A stretch of 64,000 nt of DNA from Dictyostelium discoideum (taxonomy: Eukaryota), in NCBI GenBank assembly GCA_000004695.1, contig CM000154.2, positions 4,896,001 through 4,960,000 of the forward strand, given 5' to 3'. The notes beneath the pieces were generated by a model, which saw only the letters and a list, made by a program, of their open reading frames with translations, did no database searches and was not told the origin of the DNA. Position 1 is the stretch's first letter. Each line of letters starts with the position of its first letter. The position numbers were made by a program, and so were the translations under genes. This document shows positions 22,030 to 48,678 of the stretch, piece by piece.

Positions 22030-25000
22030 TTAATTTAATTGTTTTAATTTGCTTTGTATTTGTTCTTTAAACTTTTTGGAATTTTTATTTTTGATAAAAA
22101 TGTATACAACCGAGATAACAATAATTGCCACAAAACACACTGAACCAATTACAATTCCTGCGATTTTACTGGCTGATAATCCATTTGATTTCGAACAAAT
22201 TGAATTCTCTCCTGATGCTGATTCGCTATCTAATAAAACAAAGAAATCTGGATCAATAATTACTTTATTTTTAAAATGTGGAATTTTAATTCCAATAAAA
22301 GTTTGAGTAGAGTGAGATGTTGATTCAGCAATTGTATTTTGGAATTCATCTAACAATGTATTTTCAATACCAACAATATTACCATCTACTACAGCCCTTT
22401 TAATGAATCTACCATACATTGAATGATCTTGAACTTGAAGTTTAATGTAGTTAGAGTTGTCACCATTTGTAGTATCACCAAATTGTTTTAATGAACAAAA
22501 ATCATCACTTTCATCTGTTGATAATATCGAAGCAAACATTACCAATTCGAGATTATTTAAAGCTGAAGAGAATACATAATTTTCAATTTCAATGGTAAAT
22601 TTGACTGATGATGGATTCATTTGGAGCTCTTGACCTGCAAATGTTATATTTTTGCTTGAATTAAACCATTGAATAATTGTTGTTATATTTGTGGTTTTAA
22701 TATCGTTACCATTTTGAGAAACTATTGATGTATTGTATCTACCAGTTGTTAAATCTATATCTTCAAATACCCATTTATCAAAAGGGAATGTTTTAATAAC
22801 TTCACCTTTAAAATCTAATTCTCTAATAGAAACTAAAGTTACTAATGATTTAAATAAAAATTCTGTTGAGTTTGTTTCTTGTCCACCACCACCGCCTGTA
22901 ATAGGAATTTCAACTGTTGGTTGTGAAGTATTTGTTTGTGGTGTTGGGATAATAATAATTTTTGAAGTACAATCAACTCCGTACCAAGGAGAGTAACAAA
23001 TGCATCCAAACCCACTTTGACAATAACCTTTGTTTTTTCCTCCACATTCTGGATTTCCTAAACATTTTTGAGGTGGATTTGTTGGTAATGGTGATATAGT
23101 TGGTTGTAAAGTTGGTTGTAAAGTTGGTTCTGGTGTATATGTTGGACCAGAATAATTAAAATTATAAACTATTGGATTAATTAAAAATTCATTTGATTTA
23201 ATGTTAATTTGATTGGAATCAAGTAATAATAATTTAAAAGGAATATCGATTAATGGTACCTCTGTTAATTTAATGAAACTTGAATAGGTTTTAGTTATTG
23301 TTTTTAAATTTATGTCACTACCATTCGAAATATAAATAATCGCTGTATCAACTGTACGAAAGTTTTTACCAAAAATAAATAGAGTTGAATCTTTGTTTGT
23401 AAATTCTGAAACTGATGTTATTATTGGTATATTAAATGAAAAATCTGTAGAAACAAACCAATCTTGTTGTAATGGATTTAAATCCTTAATGTCTTTTGAA
23501 GAGAATCCACTATAGGTTCCTCTATTATTAATAAAGCCATAAACAGATACTAAGAAACCATCAGGATATCCAAAACCTACTGGTACTTCTATTGTACACG
23601 AAAAGGTTATTGTAGTTGAATTAGTAATTGTTGGTGTTGCTCGGCATTGTTCCATTGCAAGTCGTTGTGGAACTAAATAAACTATTGGATTCTGTCCTTG
23701 TTTAAAACCGCTTTCTAAATCTTGTGCTTGAAAAGTGAATGTTATTGATCTATCTAAAGAGCCTACATCCATTGAAGATCTCGAGGTTTTAAAGGAAATT
23801 AAATTTGGAGGAGAACTATCCAATTCACCAGTACAATAATAATTAATACTAAAGGGTGATGAATCATTAATGAAATGAATAAATGGATTACGAGTTGACT
23901 CAAACGATTGAGTGTTTTCATAATACTCTAAAGTGAAATATTTAACATATGTATTATTGTTACCATATGTATCGAATAAACTTGCTTGAGTTATTAAATA
24001 ATCTTGAGTGATACAATTACTACTCCCAATACCAAACTCCAATGGTATTATAATTTTGTAATCACCAATAATTTTATCACCACTTCCTTCTATTAAATTT
24101 GACATGTTTATTGTAATGTTGTAGAATGAAGAATCTAAAAGTCCTTTAACAATTAAAAAGCCATCTCTGAAACCGTTTATTTCATCTTGAATTGTAAATA
24201 ACCATCCATTATGTTGTTTTATGATTTTGGTTACAATTGGTCCATAAATATCAACCTTAATTGAAGTTGCTCTTAATTGATATTCATTGGATAAATAATT
24301 ACTATCAATTAAGTTTGTATTATCAAGTACCAATGCATAACTTATATTTCCTGGTAGTGTATTTGCAGGTACTTTAAAGTTTACTCTAAATCTATTGGTT
24401 GTTTGGTCCCATACTGCAAATTTATAATTTGGATTTAAAATAGTAAATATACTATTTTCAAATCTAATATCGTTTAAAGATTTTTCATCAGTTAAATAAA
24501 AACCAATTGACAAGTCTTTATAGTCTTCAATATTATTAAATGTAAAAAACATTATATTATCAACTGATTGGTCAGTTATATCAATGTCATTATATAAAAA
24601 TGATACCTGAACTAAATCATTTAAATAATTATAATCTATTAAAATAATATTAAAAAAATTATTAGTAATGAATTATAGTAGTTTTAAAAGTGTATTATTA
24701 ATACAATTTTCTTACTTTTTAAATTAATACTTGGATATGTAAGTTTTGAAATGTTATTACCAATCTGGTAGAGATAATCACCAAATCCATATGTAACTGG
24801 GTAATCTAGGTTGCCTTCTATTTTTATTGAATTTTCGGTGATAGCATTGCTTATTTCAACAAGCTCAAATTTTATTTCTGTAAGATACTCCCAAATACCA
24901 TCAGAAGCGGTACCAGAAACAAGCATACCATTATCATGAACAGTATTCTTTGAGTTCATAATTTTTAAATACGAAACTGAAGATAAATTTGGTGAGCCGA

Positions 25001-25873
25001 TACTTTTAATTTCAATTCTGTTTAAAAACTTTAGATTTCCGATATAACTAGATGTAAAAGATTGGATTTCAAATCTTCCAACATCGGAATTAGGTAATGT
25101 AATAAATGGTTCGAAATCTCCCCTCATTTTAGTAATACATCTAGGCATACATATAGTAAGAATATTCAAAGGTGAAATGGATATTAAATTAATTGGTAAA
25201 GAGAATCCAAATTTGACCATTTCATTATTTCCTCCAATAAAGCCAAATGGAAAATCGGTAATAGTAAATGTTTGTTTATATTCTAATTGAAATGGATTAA
25301 AATCAAATTTAAATTCTGTTCCATTATACTCAGATGTAACCATTGCCATACCAACAGTTGAATTATCTTTGATAGAAGTTAACTTTGAGTTTGGTGTTTG
25401 TAATCTTGGGCTTTCTATTTTTTTAATTTGAAATATTTATATATATATATCAATTTTAATATTAATATATTTCAATTTTTTTTTTAAATATTTTAAGATT
25501 AAAAAATTAAATCAAATTTACCTGTTATATTAACAAAAAAATTGGAATATTCTTTAAATGATGGTTGTGTTTCATTTTGTCCATACAATGAAAAGTTCAT
25601 ACCATTAGCCATAATTGGTAAACAAGTTGCAATAAATGTTAAATTATTTGGTTTACCTAAAATTGGTCTTGGTGTTGAATAATATCCTAAAGTACCCAAT
25701 CTATACACCGGATTTAGAAGATTTGATTTGATTCTAAATGATAAAAGTGAACCAAATACATTTGAATATAAAACAAAATTTCCTGAAGGTGGATAAAGTT
25801 TTAAATCATAAATTTCATTCGTTACAATATTTCCTCCTTTTAAATTAAAATTAAAAATTATTATTATTATTAT

Positions 25874-27511: not shown

Positions 27512-30500
27512 TTAATTTAATTGTTTTAATTTGCTTTGTATTTGTTGTTTAAACTTTTTGGATTTTTCATTTTTGATAAAAACATAAACAATAGAAATAA
27601 TAACAACTGCCACAAAACACACTGAACCAATTACAATTCCTGCAATTTTACTGGCTGATAATTCATTTGATTTTGAACAAATTGAATTCTCTCCTGATGC
27701 TGATTCGCTATCTAATAAAACAAAGAAATCTGGATCAATAATCACTTTATTTTTAAAATGTGGAATTTTAATTCCAATAAAAGTTTGAGTAGAGTGAGAT
27801 GTTGATTCAGCAATTGTATTTTGGAATTCATCTAACAATGTATTTTCAATACCAACAATATTGTCATCGACTACAGCCCTTTTAATGAATCTACCATACA
27901 TTGAATGATCTTGAACTTGAAGTTTAATGTAGTTAGAGTTGTCACCATTTGTAGTATCACCAAATTGTTTTAATGAACAAAAATCATCACTTTCATCTGT
28001 TGATAATATCGAAGCAAACATTACCAATTCTAGATTATTTAAAGCAGAGGAGAATACATAATTTTCAATTTCAATGGTAAATTTGACTGATGATGGATTC
28101 ATTTGGAGCTCTTGACCTGCAAATGTTATATTTTTGCTTGAATTAAACCATTGAATAATTGTTGTTATATTTGTGGTTTTAATGTCGTTACCATTTTGAG
28201 AAACTATTGATGTATTGTATCTACCAGTTGTTAAATCAATTTCATCAAATACCCATTTATCAAAAGGGAATGTTTTAATAACTTCACCTTTAAAACCTAA
28301 TTCTCTTATTGAAACTAAAGTTACCAATGATTTAAATAAAAATTCTGTTGAGTTTGTTTCTTGTCCACCACCACCACCTGGTATTGGAATTTCAACTGTT
28401 GGTCCTGAAGTATTTGTTTGTGGTGTTGGGATAATAATAATTTTTGAAGTACAATCAATTCCATACCAAGGAGAGTAACAAATGCATCCAAACCCACTTT
28501 GACAATAACCTTTGTTTTTTCCTCCACATTCTGGATTTCCTAAACATTTTTGAGGTGGATTTGTTGGTAATGGTGATATAGTTGGTTGTAAAGTTGGTTG
28601 TAAAGTTGGTTCTGGTGTATATGTTGGACCAGAATAATTAAAATTATAAACTATTGGATTAATTAAAAATTCATTTGATTTAATGTTAATTTGATTGGAA
28701 TCAAGTAATAATAATTTAAAAGGAATATCGATTAATGGTACCTCTGTTAATTTAATGAAACTTGAATAGGTTTTAGTTATTGTTTTTAAATTTATGTCAC
28801 TACCATTCGAAATATAAATAATCGCTGTATCAACTGTACGAAAGTTTTTACCAAAAATAAATAGAGTTGAATCTTTGTTTGTAAATTCTGAAACTGATGT
28901 TATTATTGGTATATTAAATGAAAAATCTGTAGAAACAAACCAATCTTGTTGTAATGGATTTAAATCCTTAATGTCTTTTGAAGAGAATCCACTATAGGTT
29001 CCTCTATTATTAATAAAGCCATAAACAGATATTAAGAAACCTTCAGGATATCCAAAACCTACTGGTACTTCTATTGTGCATGAAAAGGTTATAGTGGTCG
29101 TATTGGTAATTGTTGGTGTTGCTTGACATTGTTCCATTGCAAGTCGTTGTGGAACTAAATAAACTATTGGATTCTGTCCTTGTTTAAAACCGCTTTCTAA
29201 ATCTTGTGCTTGAAAAGTGAATGTTATTGATCTATCTAAAGAGCCTACATCCATTGAAGATCTCGAAGTTTTAAAGAATATTAAATTTGGAGGAGAACTA
29301 TCCAATTCGCCATTACAATAATAATTAAATATTAAGGGTGATGAATCATTAATGAAATGAATAAATGGATTACTAGTTGAATCAAAGAATTGAGAGTCCT
29401 CATAAAATTCTTGAACGAAATGTTTAACATATGTATTATTGTTACCATATGTATCGAATAAACTTGCTTGAGTTATTAAATAATCTTGAGTGATACAATT
29501 ACTAATTCCAATACCAAACTCCAATGGTATTATAATTTTGTAATCACCAATAATTTTATCACCACTTCCTTCTATTAAATTTGACATGCTTATTGTAATG
29601 TTGTAGAATGAAGAATCTAAAAGTCCTTTAACAATTAAAAAGCCATCTCTGAAACCGTTCACTTCATCTTGGATTGTATATACCCAACCATTCTGTTGTT
29701 TTATGATTTTGGTTACAATTGGTCCATAAATATCAACCTTAATTGAAGTTGCTCTTAATTGATATTCATTGGATAAATAATTACTATCAATTAAGTTTGT
29801 ATTATCAAGTACCAATGCATAACTTATATTTCCTGGTAGTGTATTTGCAGGTACTTTAAAGTTTACTCTAAATCTATTGGTTGTTTGGTCCCATACTGCA
29901 AATTTATAATTTGGATTTAAAATAGTAAATATACTATTTTCAAATCTAATATCTTTTAAAGATTTTTCATCAGTTAAATAAAAACCAATTGACAAATCTT
30001 TATAGTCTTCAATATTATTAAATGTAAAAAACATTATATTATCAACTGATTGGTCAGTGATATCAATGTCATTATATAAAAATGATACCTGAACTAAATC
30101 ATTTAAATAATTATAATCTATTAAAATAATATTAAAAAAATTATTAGAAATGAATTACAGTGGTTTTTTATGTGTAAAATTAATAGAACTTTCTTACTTT
30201 TTAAATTAATACTTGGATATGTAAGTTTTGAAAATTCATTACCAATTTGATAGACCGTGTCACCAAATTCATATGTACTTCGAGTATCTTTGGTGCCTAC
30301 AATTTTTATTGTATTTTTTATGCTAGCACTACTTAATTCAACAAAATCAAATTTTATTTCTGTAACAAACTCCCAAAAACCTTCAGAAGCGGTACCAGAA
30401 ACAAGCATACCATTATCCAAAACAATATACTTTGTTTCTTTAATTTCTAAAAATGAAACTGAAGATAAATTTGGTGAAACTGTACTTTTAATTCCAATTC

Positions 30501-31362
30501 GGTTTAAAAACTTTAGATTCCCGATATAAATTGATGTAAAATATTGGATTTCAAGTTTTCCAACATCGGTGTCGGGTAATATAATAAATGGTTCGAAATC
30601 CCCTCTCATTTTATGAGTACATCTTGGCATACATAAGTTTAAGATATTCAAAGGTGAAATTGACATTAAATCAGCTGGTAAAGAGAATCCAAATTTGACC
30701 ATTTCATTATTTCCTCCAATAAAGCCAAATGGAAAATCGGTAATAGTAAATGTTTGTTTATATTCTAATTGAAATGGATTAAAATCAAATTTAAATTCTG
30801 TTCCATTATACTCAGATGTAACCATTGCCATACCAACAGTTGAATTATCTTTGATAGAAGTTAACTTTGAGTTTGGTGTTTGTAATCTTGGGCTTTCTAT
30901 TTTTTTAATTTGAAATATTTACATATATATATATCAATTTTAATATTAATATATTTCGATTTTTTTTTTAAATATTTTAAGATTAAAAAAATTAAATCAA
31001 ATTTACCTGTTATATTAACAAAAAAATTGAAAAATTCTTTAAATGATGGTTGTGTTTCATTTTGTCCATATAATGAAAAGTCCATACCATTAGCCTTAAT
31101 TGGTAAACAGGTTGCAATAAATGTTAAATTATTTGGTTTACCTAAAATTGGTCTTGGTGTTGAATAATATCCTAAAGTACCCAACCTAAATACTGGATTT
31201 TGAAGATTTGATTTGATTCTAAACGATAAAAGTGAACTAAGTATATTTGAATATAAAACAAATTGTCCTAAAGGTGGATAAAGTTTTAAATCATAAATTT
31301 CATTCGTTACAATATTTCCTCCTTTTAAATTAAAATTAAAAATTTGTTAATAAATTATTAAT

Positions 31363-37079: not shown

Positions 37080-37495
37080 ATGTTTGATGAAGCTTGTGTT
37101 GATCAACTTATATTTTTTAAAATCATTTTTTTTTAAGCAATGTTTCTAAACTTTATCATCATCTGCCTGAGATTCCATCACTTCATCAATTTTATCGCCA
37201 GTGATTGAACCAGGTGGAGGTAGTGGCTTTACACACCTACCAATATCTCCATTCTCAATGTTTGGAAAGAATACTTTCTATTTTTAATAATGGTATTAGA
37301 ATTTAATGAATAAAAAGTAGTGTACAGTTTATATTTTTTAATTATTCTTATAAAACTTACGATAATTTCGGTAACATCATTATAAAATGAAGCTTGGTCA
37401 ATGTTATTAAACACTTGTATATTATTGATTGAATTCATTTTGTAATGACTAAATAGGCAAAATATAAGTTGATCAACACAAGCTTCATCAAACAT
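37080..37495. repeat. Perfect 35-bp inverted repeat with arms at 37080..37114 and 37461..37495, separated by 346 bp.
   Basis: The plus arm atgtttgatgaagcttgtgttgatcaacttatatt is the reverse complement of aatataagttgatcaacacaagcttcatcaaacat. One arm lies in the coding exon and the other 32 nt past the stop codon of the DNase II-like gene. Confidence 0.85.
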
Positions 37496-39712
37496 CACTG
37501 AAATAGAATTACTGGTACCAATTGGAGTGATAGTACAAGGGGTATTGGTACTTGATGGTGAAAATTCAAATTTAAAATTATTTGGAGTTTGAGTCTGCTC
37601 TAAATAAACTCTATTTATATTACCACTAAGTTGGACTATTTTTTCAGTAGCTAAAGAAGAGAAATAATTATTCTTCAATACTTGTGAAACAGTGATAACA
37701 AGATTTGGATTGGAGGAAATTATCATAACAGGTTCTGAGTGTATGTCTTTTTGACTAGGAGTAACAATAAGATTTATATTTGAAATGATATTAAATTTAG
37801 CCGATGATTCATATGGACATTCGGGTGACTGTAGACATATGTGTACTTTATCTTTTACACTTGGGAAAACATCAATTGAAATGTCCTCAGTTTTATAGCC
37901 TACTGTATCAGGTTGGACAAGGAGTGGAGCATTCGTGGTTTTATAGTTTGATTGTTTTGGTTCAATAACTCTTTTTGGAAGTGGGTTTAGTGTTTGTGGT
38001 ATTAAAATTTCAAATCCCATTGGATTATCTAGATTTTGAGCGGCAAATTGATTCATTATCCAAGAAAAGTCTATTTCAGTTCCTATCGTTGATTGTGGGA
38101 CACCAAGTTTTGCAATATTATAGGTTATATCTTTTCTTATCCATGTTACATGTCTTTCCATATAATCAACTAAATATCCAATACCATCCATGCAATAAGC
38201 TCCTCCTCCTCTTGATTCTAATTATGAAGTATATCGTATCAAATGGTATATAATAATTAATTAGTTTTAATTATAGTAAAAATAATAATAAAAATAAAAT
38301 ATAATTAAAATAAAAATAAAAATAAAAATAAAAATAATTAATTATGATTAAAATAATATTATTTTTATCTTACCTTGACCTCTTTGCCAATTTAGATCAC
38401 CTAAACAAAAGGTTTTTTGTTGACCATCATCACTGGTACCATACATTAACTTTGAATGATCTTTTGAGGAACTTCTTTGTGGATTTACATCTATGAATGG
38501 ATAATTGAGTCTTAATGCTATTGAGAAACTTGTACCAGAAACTACATTATTAGCAAATCCCTTTATTGTATTTGATGTCATTGTTTGAGACATCCATTTC
38601 GAAATATTTTTGTAATATTTACCAATATATTGCCATAATAATTCAATGTTATTCATTTGAGCAAAGTTTTTTGAAGATGGTTCGGCAATAATTCCTTTCT
38701 TTTGTGGGAGTGAAGTTTGAACAAAATATTCACCAAAGGAATATTTATTTACATGATAATAATGAGAAGATTTGAAGTTTGCATCTGATGAGAATTCAAA
38801 ATTTTCAGAAATATGACCAGCCTGGAAAATAAATAAAAAAAAAGTTGTAAAATTTGAGTGAGTATTTATTATCACAATAAAATAAACAATAATAAAAATA
38901 ATTATACATACCAATTTAGCCCATTGTAAAATTTTAATTTTTCTAGAGAGAGTTGAACCTACAAAAAAATTTTTCTTAATAATTTCATCGATTTCTGAAA
39001 AATATTTCTTTTTCTTTAAATCATCATCTGTTACTGTATCTAATTTTGTTTCGTCTACATCATTGATACCTGTTAGACTTGTTGCGAGTAATTTGCTTAA
39101 CATTTTACCTTTGTCGAATTTATGGTTATTTATTGCTTTAATTGCAGGGTTAGTATATATCAAATATTTTGGAATAATATCTAATTCATTTGGTTTCAAT
39201 GTAATACAAATTGAATGTTGTAAATAACTATCTTCAGAACTATGTAAAAAGAAATCATCAATTTCTTGAGGTGTGTAGGGGATACTATGAATTACGTGAA
39301 TACCACCATGTTCATTCCAAATAAAAAACCCTTTTGCATGTGCACTCCCTTTACCGTCATCAAAAGCATTATTGTAAGAAATACTTGAAAATATATTACC
39401 GTTGGCTTGACCGAATGTTTGAGTAATTGGAGATACCTGGTCTTTAACTCTCATATTATATTTACTTAATTCAAGTATTTTTTCATTTTTGTTCTTTAAA
39501 TTGCTATCTGTATAAAAAGATGAACCACTACCTTTATCTCCAGGTTTATTAAAATGTTCATAAATCCACCAATCAACATAATTTTCAGCGGGTTTTAAGC
39601 TTGGATTTGATGATTTTGCATAAATATCATTGTATAAACATCTCGGAACTTGTTGACATTTAATTATTGAAAATAAAATAAATAATAAAAATATTTTAAT
39701 CAAATTTTTCAT
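37146..39712 (-). CDS. DNase II (acid deoxyribonuclease) family protein with a roughly 330-aa C-terminal extension of unknown function. 4 exons: complement(38912..39712, 38374..38821, 37361..38217, 37146..37277), about 745 aa.
   Basis: Signal peptide MKNLIKIFLLFILFSIIKCQQ. The first HxK motif is GSAHAKGFFIW and the second is KDHSKLMYG. Then ...CLGDLNWQRGQG|ESRGGGAYC spans a gtaaga intron, and this junction mirrors the human DNASE2 C-terminus ([20 protein letters not shown]). The 90-nt in-frame intron 38822..38911 (gtatgt...ccag) is read through in the ORF track as the segment VCIIIFIIVYF. Two further GTAAGT/...TAG introns complete the model. Stop codon at 37146..37148. Confidence 0.6.
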
Positions 39713-39821: not shown

Positions 39822-40260
39822 ATAAAATAAAATAAAATAAAATAAAATAAAAGAAAATAAAATAAAATGAGTAAATTTTTTTGAAAAATCTTGATTGGTT
39901 TGGTATTTTTAGCATCAAAACCAATTTCAAATAAACAATTTATTTTTTTAATTTTCAAACGATAAAAACTAAATACCAAGGAATTGCTCGTCTTTTTTTT
40001 TGAAATGGTTCACACTAAACACCAAGATATTGCTTTTTTTTTTTTTAAATTTTGGAAAGATATACACTAGATTGCTCGTCTTTTTTATTTTGAAATGATT
40101 TACACTAAATACCAAGATATTGCCCATTTTTTTTATATTTTTTTTTTATTTTATTTTATTTTATGTTATTTAAAATTAATTTTTTCACAGATAGCTCAAT
40201 AGTTTTTTTTTTTTTTTGTTTTTAAAAAAATAGTAAATAAGATATCAAAAACAAATAAAA

Positions 40261-48594
<8,334 letters not shown>

Positions 48595-48640
48595 TATTTA
48601 AAACCAACAAATAAAATAATATCATTTAAAAATTCAGATA

Positions 48641-48678
<38 letters not shown>

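Follow-up and report, generated by a model that had tools for sequence, protein, structure and literature searches.

A Dictyostelium DNase II-like protein fused to a family-specific C-terminal module

The gene DDB_G0291033 of Dictyostelium discoideum lies on the minus strand of the stretch of DNA analysed here, which comprises 64,000 nucleotides (assembly GCA_000004695.1, contig CM000154.2, positions 4,896,001 to 4,960,000 of the forward strand); this whole stretch is called the window, and positions are counted from its first letter. The product of the gene joins two parts: a DNase II domain (residues ~20-445) that, to judge from its sequence, is divergent yet complete, and a C-terminal module of ~275 residues that is lineage-specific, probably disulfide-stabilised and an orphan, being restricted to a paralogue family found only in Dictyostelium. 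The fusion is genuine rather than an artefact of splicing, and on balance the protein is probably a secretory-pathway acid DNase to which the module would contribute as a non-catalytic accessory. DNase II belongs to the phospholipase-D (PLD) superfamily; each half of its fold contributes one HxK motif to a single active site, which cleaves DNA without a metal cofactor via a phospho-histidine intermediate, typically at acid pH, and leaves 3'-phosphate ends. It is normally a compact single-domain lysosomal enzyme that is present in one or a few copies.

The locus occupies positions 37146-39712 with four exons and three GT..AG introns, beginning at an ATG at 39712 and ending at a TAG at 37148-37146, and these limits are exactly those proposed in an earlier note made from the DNA alone. 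The spliced product of 745 amino acids (aa) is identical (100% identity over 100% of the length) to the DDB_G0291033 protein of D. discoideum AX4 (P0001; XP_635465; UniProt Q54F72), which bears the label "hypothetical protein". Exons have a G+C content of 27-39% against 8-16% in introns and flanks, in a window that consists of AT-rich DNA of the Dictyostelium type, and all three GT/AG pairs are retained in L001, the syntenic orthologue locus of a divergent strain (assembly GCA_054859355.1), which is collinear with the window over ~27 kb. The splice across 38218..38373 was correctly placed by the earlier note, although its reading of the junction as RGQG|ESRGG was off by one residue: the protein runs ...GDLNWQRGQ-E-SRGGGAYC, with the split codon G|AA coding for Glu. 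The terminal exon encodes KVFFPNIENGDIGRCVKPLPPPGS...DDDKV*, just as had been read, and the peptide that follows intron 3 (FFPNI..RCV..PPPGS) is conserved between species in the extension alignment described below. A tblastn search of the 64-kb window returned DDB_G0291033 alone, with no second paralogue. The locus is therefore a genuine single gene, whose model is already public, and the fusion is accordingly not new as a gene model; what had been put forward as one of two options, a novel fusion, is real and recurrent, but it is already annotated and represents one of four full-length paralogues in AX4. The searchable literature yielded no mention of the gene, its paralogues or their accessions.

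The N-terminal half matches the Pfam profile PF03265 (DNase_II) with E=8.1e-31 and 107.8 bits against a cut-off of 23, in two stretches that cover profile positions 5-260 and 255-307 of 326, the second of which reaches position 307 at Cys425. Across 30 family members H125, K127, H389, K391 and C406 are invariant and C425 is present in at least 90%; given the invariance of the catalytic residues across the family, the catalytic machinery is under constraint. C406 and C425, which flank GDxN...RGGG, align with both cysteines of human DNASE2, and BLASTP pairs KDHSK...CLGDLNWQRGQESRGGGAYC with the human EDHSK... segment right across the intron 2 junction, so that the homology to the human enzyme claimed over this splice holds; the human sequence in every such alignment was entered by hand. 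In the structure model of the full-length protein (pTM, the predicted template-modelling score, 0.77) the domain has the three-dimensional fold of DNase II and of the PLD superfamily, with helical insertions at about residues 196-262 and a length ~100 residues above that of canonical DNase II. The protein as a whole also departs from the canonical single-domain length (~330-380 aa, with the end 20-35 residues past the last Cys), given that 320 residues follow Cys425. Length, however, is a descriptive rather than a defining feature of these enzymes, and the DNase II membership of the catalytic domain therefore stands.

The reality of the fusion can be read from the exon structure, for RGGGAYC and the next 277 residues lie in one uninterrupted exon (38217-37361), which makes the fusion independent of any predicted splice. 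The junction between DNase II and the extension likewise falls within one exon in L001 and in a paralogue from D. firmibasis. The ~20 residues that follow Cys425, modelled as a helix (430-438) and a strand (440-444), match the C-terminal end of an ordinary DNase II, and a canonical relative, P0043, stops 21 residues past the equivalent Cys. With these ~20 of the 320 residues belonging to the normal DNase II end, the true extension measures ~300 aa; the continuation past the enzyme reported earlier is thus real, whereas its length of 330 aa was an overestimate. Extensions of 303-365 aa occur in 33 of the 37 family proteins first found, the other four being truncated or mis-fused models. One might still suppose that the DNase II gene ends soon after RGGGAYC and that the downstream frame is a separate gene or non-coding, a view that can draw on the fact that the homologues are all computational gene models themselves. 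Yet not only is the junction inside a continuous exon, but the downstream frame is conserved as protein down to 17-22% identity with invariant cysteines, has the same ratio of nonsynonymous to synonymous substitution rates (dN/dS) as the catalytic half, and folds in prediction with a mean local confidence (pLDDT, predicted local distance difference test) of 83. Moreover, the extension never stands alone among 1.84e9 representative proteins, and Met426, the residue next after RGGGAYC, is not conserved, which leaves no separate start codon and makes a separate downstream gene not credible. An artefact of annotation or splicing is hence largely refuted and retains the barest of chances. The same evidence, namely a junction within one exon and an extension with a confident fold that is conserved in more than 30 members, disposes of the unrecognised intron or stop that had been entertained alongside the fusion.

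The module itself is well folded in prediction, AlphaFold2 giving the extension a pLDDT of 83.3 and a pTM of 0.81. An alignment of 17 extensions, with pairwise identities down to 17%, displays six conserved cysteines (C544, C550, C644, C663, C670 and C717), five of them invariant and one nearly so, together with a conserved FPS motif and a helix with the pattern C-x-D-Q-L-x-F-C-L; in most members the signature of the alpha/beta subdomain reads FHxxCxDQLxFCL. In the tail a motif, M-x-S-x-[SA]-x-x-D, is loosely conserved in one subfamily. No Pfam family matched the extension of the window protein at E up to 10, and at the same limit the 17 aligned extensions drew nine families with one member each (best E 0.023), a chance-like scatter in which none was consistent; a profile search of the PDB sequences at E up to 10 likewise gave no match to the extension. 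When the set of 1.84e9 representative proteins was searched exhaustively with a HMMER profile of the extension, six matches were obtained, all from Dictyostelium and all aligning C-terminally, from residue ~390-480 onward. The single new protein among them, P0038, carries a DNase II domain too, and in the two short models, P0017 and P0018, the start still falls within the DNase II domain; an extension without DNase II was not encountered in that set.

The alpha/beta subdomain could conceivably be a degenerate zincin-like domain, derived from or convergent on a zinc-metallopeptidase or YbeY-type fold, that is no longer catalytic and binds proteins or peptides as a pseudo-enzyme. This origin appears quite improbable, inasmuch as the module has neither HExxH nor any other set of metal ligands, His and Glu are not conserved at the relevant place (the window protein has D-E-A-C), the helix carries C-x-D-Q-L-x-F-C-L with C, D, L and C as its invariant residues and no second His, and no Pfam peptidase matches even at E=10.

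The family to which DDB_G0291033 belongs is represented by ~40 proteins found in searches, which come from D. discoideum strains, D. citrinum, D. dimigraforme, D. firmibasis and D. purpureum. In these five species more than 30 paralogues and orthologues show the complete architecture. A search for the extension in other dictyostelids, as the earlier note had advised, does find it in relatives, but only within Dictyostelium sensu stricto. The AX4 strain has four full-length paralogues (DDB_G0291033, G0267616, G0290837 and G0270642), besides a truncated copy, G0270848, and a degenerate one, G0270476. The latter (P0042, or DDB_G0270476, on chromosome 1) still has an N-terminal segment of DNase II, no longer has the first HxK and then passes into unrelated sequence; it is probably either a pseudogene or a chimeric gene model. 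At positions 1-810 of L001, beyond the orthologue of a neighbouring gene for a 2476-aa protein, there is an extra DNase II-plus-module paralogue, which has no counterpart in AX4 at window positions 42471-48675; the copy number of the family therefore varies. On D. firmibasis CM069767.1 (L002 665-12454) three DNase II-plus-module genes, coding for 734, 741 and 739 aa, form a tandem array, in which each of the first two copies is followed by a convergent, co-duplicated small gene of 230-244 aa. This small gene was considered as a conserved partner and rejected, as it is without a homologue in the window or in L001. One paper counts DNase II activity among the lineage-specific expansions that dictyostelids have in common (PMC8535579).

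Rates of change were estimated between AX4 and the syntenic orthologue on L001, P0002, a 'D. discoideum' protein of 80% identity. The DNase II half of DDB_G0291033 has a dN/dS of 0.66 and its extension one of 0.69, as compared with 0.036 and 0.126, respectively, for two housekeeping neighbours, the ATP-sulfurylase/APS-kinase gene and the CCS-like gene, and 0.3-0.75 for the neighbouring gene of 2476 aa with a hydrophobic N-terminus. Hyper-polymorphism of the allorecognition type was also considered and set aside: the L001 genome differs from AX4 throughout, with housekeeping coding DNA 95-99% identical. In light of this genome-wide divergence, and of the similar behaviour of the 2476-aa neighbour, DDB_G0291033 can be seen as fast-evolving without being an extreme outlier.

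Taken at face value, these features point to a protein that most likely is active as a nuclease in the secretory or the endolysosomal pathway. The predicted signal peptide would send it out of the cell or into an endolysosomal or phagosomal lumen, and there the HxK pair would cut DNA in the manner of DNase II, taking its substrate from prey bacteria or elsewhere. The module would be a non-catalytic accessory that stays attached to the enzyme for good and has a short, disordered, acidic tail at its end; it may tether the nuclease to a particle or partner, such as a bacterial surface, chromatin, an extracellular DNA matrix or a sorting receptor, or it may stabilise the enzyme, or both. A targeting or regulatory role on a lysosomal nuclease, which the earlier note had ventured for the module, would likewise be conjecture. 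The rapid change of the protein sequence in the enzyme and the module alike would be in keeping with exposure to a changing outside world. A bolder version, which we hold to be unlikely, is that, thanks to the module, a housekeeping nuclease of the lysosome has become a targeted effector, secreted or phagosomal, and that the module recognises a variable surface (prey bacteria, the DNA matrices of biofilms or extracellular traps, or competing amoebae), with the family diversifying in an arms race akin to those of toxin and immune-effector families and the module representing a new recognition fold from group-4 Dictyostelium.

A different role for the module would be that of a pro-domain or auto-inhibitor which, perhaps with the acidic tail as a DNA mimic, silences the nuclease in transit and is removed by proteases in an acidic compartment to leave a DNase II of canonical size. 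Many lysosomal hydrolases are made as precursors, and the charges would suit such an arrangement, since a basic mature DNase II half (isoelectric point, pI, 8.4) is joined to an acidic module (5.1) and an acidic tail (4.0); the tail, moreover, is disordered and preceded by a Pro-rich linker. However, this is a sizeable, well-folded module with conserved cysteines as cross-links, and it is modelled together with the enzyme at the full-length pTM given above, which exceeds what a pro-peptide typically needs. At the junction, one of the most variable stretches of the protein, no cleavage motif stands out as conserved, and the DDB_G0270642 subfamily is without the acidic tail. We accordingly give the pro-domain a low probability and retain the secretory-pathway acid DNase with an accessory module as the preferred account.

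Several points nonetheless weigh against that account. It is built on sequence and structural models; the signal peptide is a prediction from the hydrophobicity of the N-terminus; and there is just one N-x-S/T sequon, a low number for a classic lysosomal enzyme of Dictyostelium. The accessory or binding role of the module, although the more likely one, is argued from its architecture, and no known binding fold or motif was recognised in it. A dN/dS of ~0.7 might reflect relaxed constraint in a redundant family instead of adaptation, and in a sliding-window analysis of pN/pS with 60-codon windows the substitution counts were too small for a claim of positive selection.

Table 1. Features of the DDB_G0291033 locus, in positions of the window
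Feature	Position	Strand	Basis or remark
Complete coding sequence of DDB_G0291033, 745 aa + stop	37146..39712	-	Spliced translation, protein identity, tblastn, exon/intron G+C contrast
Exons	39712-38912, 38821-38374, 38217-37361, 37277-37146	-	Spliced translation
Intron 1, 90 nt, GTATGT..CCAG	38822..38911	-	G+C; splice pair retained in L001
Intron 2, 156 nt, GTAAGA..TTAG, 8% G+C	38218..38373	-	Donor and acceptor retained in L001; homology across junction
Intron 3, 83 nt, GTAAGT..ATAG, before terminal exon	37278..37360	-	Retained in L001; post-intron peptide conserved
Predicted signal peptide MKNLIKIFLLFILFSIIKC, residues 1-19	39656..39712	-	Sole strongly hydrophobic 19-residue window in the protein; helix 2-17 in model
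DNase II catalytic domain, residues ~20-445	38132..39655 (includes introns 1 and 2)	-	
First HxK motif, H125-A-K127	39332..39340	-	Invariant in 30 members; aligns with human H-T-K
Second HxK motif, H389-S-K391	38450..38458	-	Invariant in 30 members; aligns with human DHSKW
RGGGAYC, R419-C425, last conserved DNase II motif	38192..38212	-	Shares exon with extension
Family-specific C-terminal module, residues ~446-720	37224..38131 (includes intron 3)	-	Alignment, AlphaFold2, no Pfam/PDB match
Beta-sandwich subdomain, residues ~484-584, nine strands	37715..38017	-	Holds C544/C550
Alpha/beta subdomain, residues ~595-705	37269..37684 (includes intron 3)	-	Invariant C..CxDxL..C signature
Pro-rich linker and disordered acidic tail, residues 721-745, pI ~4	37149..37223	-	pLDDT <50; alignment columns 401-441
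Inverted copy of 37-bp coding segment, in 3' flank	37080..37116	+	Partner arm 37459-37495 (-), encoding MFDEACVDQLIF

The surroundings of the gene hold some further features. A 37-bp segment of the coding sequence recurs as a perfect inverted copy in the 3' flank (Table 1), where 0 such repeats are expected by chance; the arm in the flank ends 29 nt past the stop codon, and the copy is absent from the syntenic orthologue L001. An 11-bp direct repeat, AAACATTGCTT, stands at both ends of the inserted stretch, with one of its copies overlapping the end of the inverted arm, and the whole looks like a microhomology-mediated template-switch insertion. Since the inverted copy precedes the first AATAAA (37050-37045), a perfect stem of 37 bp might form in the mRNA, with a duplex energy of -54.8 kcal/mol. 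On the other side of the gene, the 548-bp divergent intergenic region between DDB_G0291033 and a gene starting at 40261 contains, at window positions 39947-40143, three direct repeats of 61 nt with the core ...CACTAAAYACCAAGRWATTGC..., which are 69-100% identical to the reference copy and whose starts are spaced by 46 and 90 nt; possibly these repeats form a shared regulatory element. The very large gene at window positions 40237-48591 (+), whose product has 2476 aa in the orthologous annotation, a hydrophobic N-terminus and a fast rate of evolution, matched no Pfam domain. Farther away, on the minus strand, window positions 22033-25436 and 27515-30918 hold adjacent, closely similar copies of another large gene, the L001 orthologue of which is annotated with ComC_SSD, DUF7034 and DUF7035; this pair is a recent tandem duplication.

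Dictyostelium is a professional phagocyte and a model for innate-immunity-like behaviour, which lends weight to the presence in it of a genus-restricted, multi-copy and fast-evolving set of DNase II proteins that carry a folded domain without known relatives. Were it true that the module steers the nuclease to its targets, the family would show how amoebae handle foreign DNA, biofilms and DNA traps, and it would define a new domain family. Should the module merely stabilise the enzyme, the gain would be a modest one of annotation, in that the name DNase II-like protein with a family-specific C-terminal domain could be given to DDB_G0291033 and to its paralogues.

When set beside known systems, the Dictyostelium protein shares with human DNASE2 and the PF03265 family the two HxK motifs, the C...RGGGxxC cysteine pair and a profile match far above threshold, and its hydrophobic N-terminus would correspond to their signal peptide. 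It differs from them in its catalytic domain, longer by ~100 residues, and in the additional module of ~300 residues, given that canonical DNase II enzymes stop 20-35 residues after the last Cys. Its sequence is so divergent that word-seeded HMMER protein searches gave Dictyostelium relatives only. The DNase II of Burkholderia thailandensis (PDB 5i3e), the one DNase II of solved structure in the set compared, has 14% identity to it and consists of a single domain of 346 residues without a C-terminal module. Other families of the PLD superfamily, namely PLD3/PLD4, Tdp1 and Nuc, are unrelated to the module. A parallel might also be drawn with the expanded DNase II families and toxins of other lineages, such as those of Trichinella spiralis and the plancitoxin-1 of Acanthaster, with which the Dictyostelium family shares a lineage-specific multiplication of genes and which, to our knowledge, have DNase II domains of canonical length. 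In T. spiralis there are ~125 predicted DNase II genes, the product of a lineage-specific multiplication in an organism in close interaction with other cells (PMC4148230). The Dictyostelium family is small by comparison, with four full-length and two degenerate members in AX4, and its full-length members all carry the orphan module. The combination of DNase II with an orphan module of ~300 residues is a lineage-specific variant of a known enzyme family.

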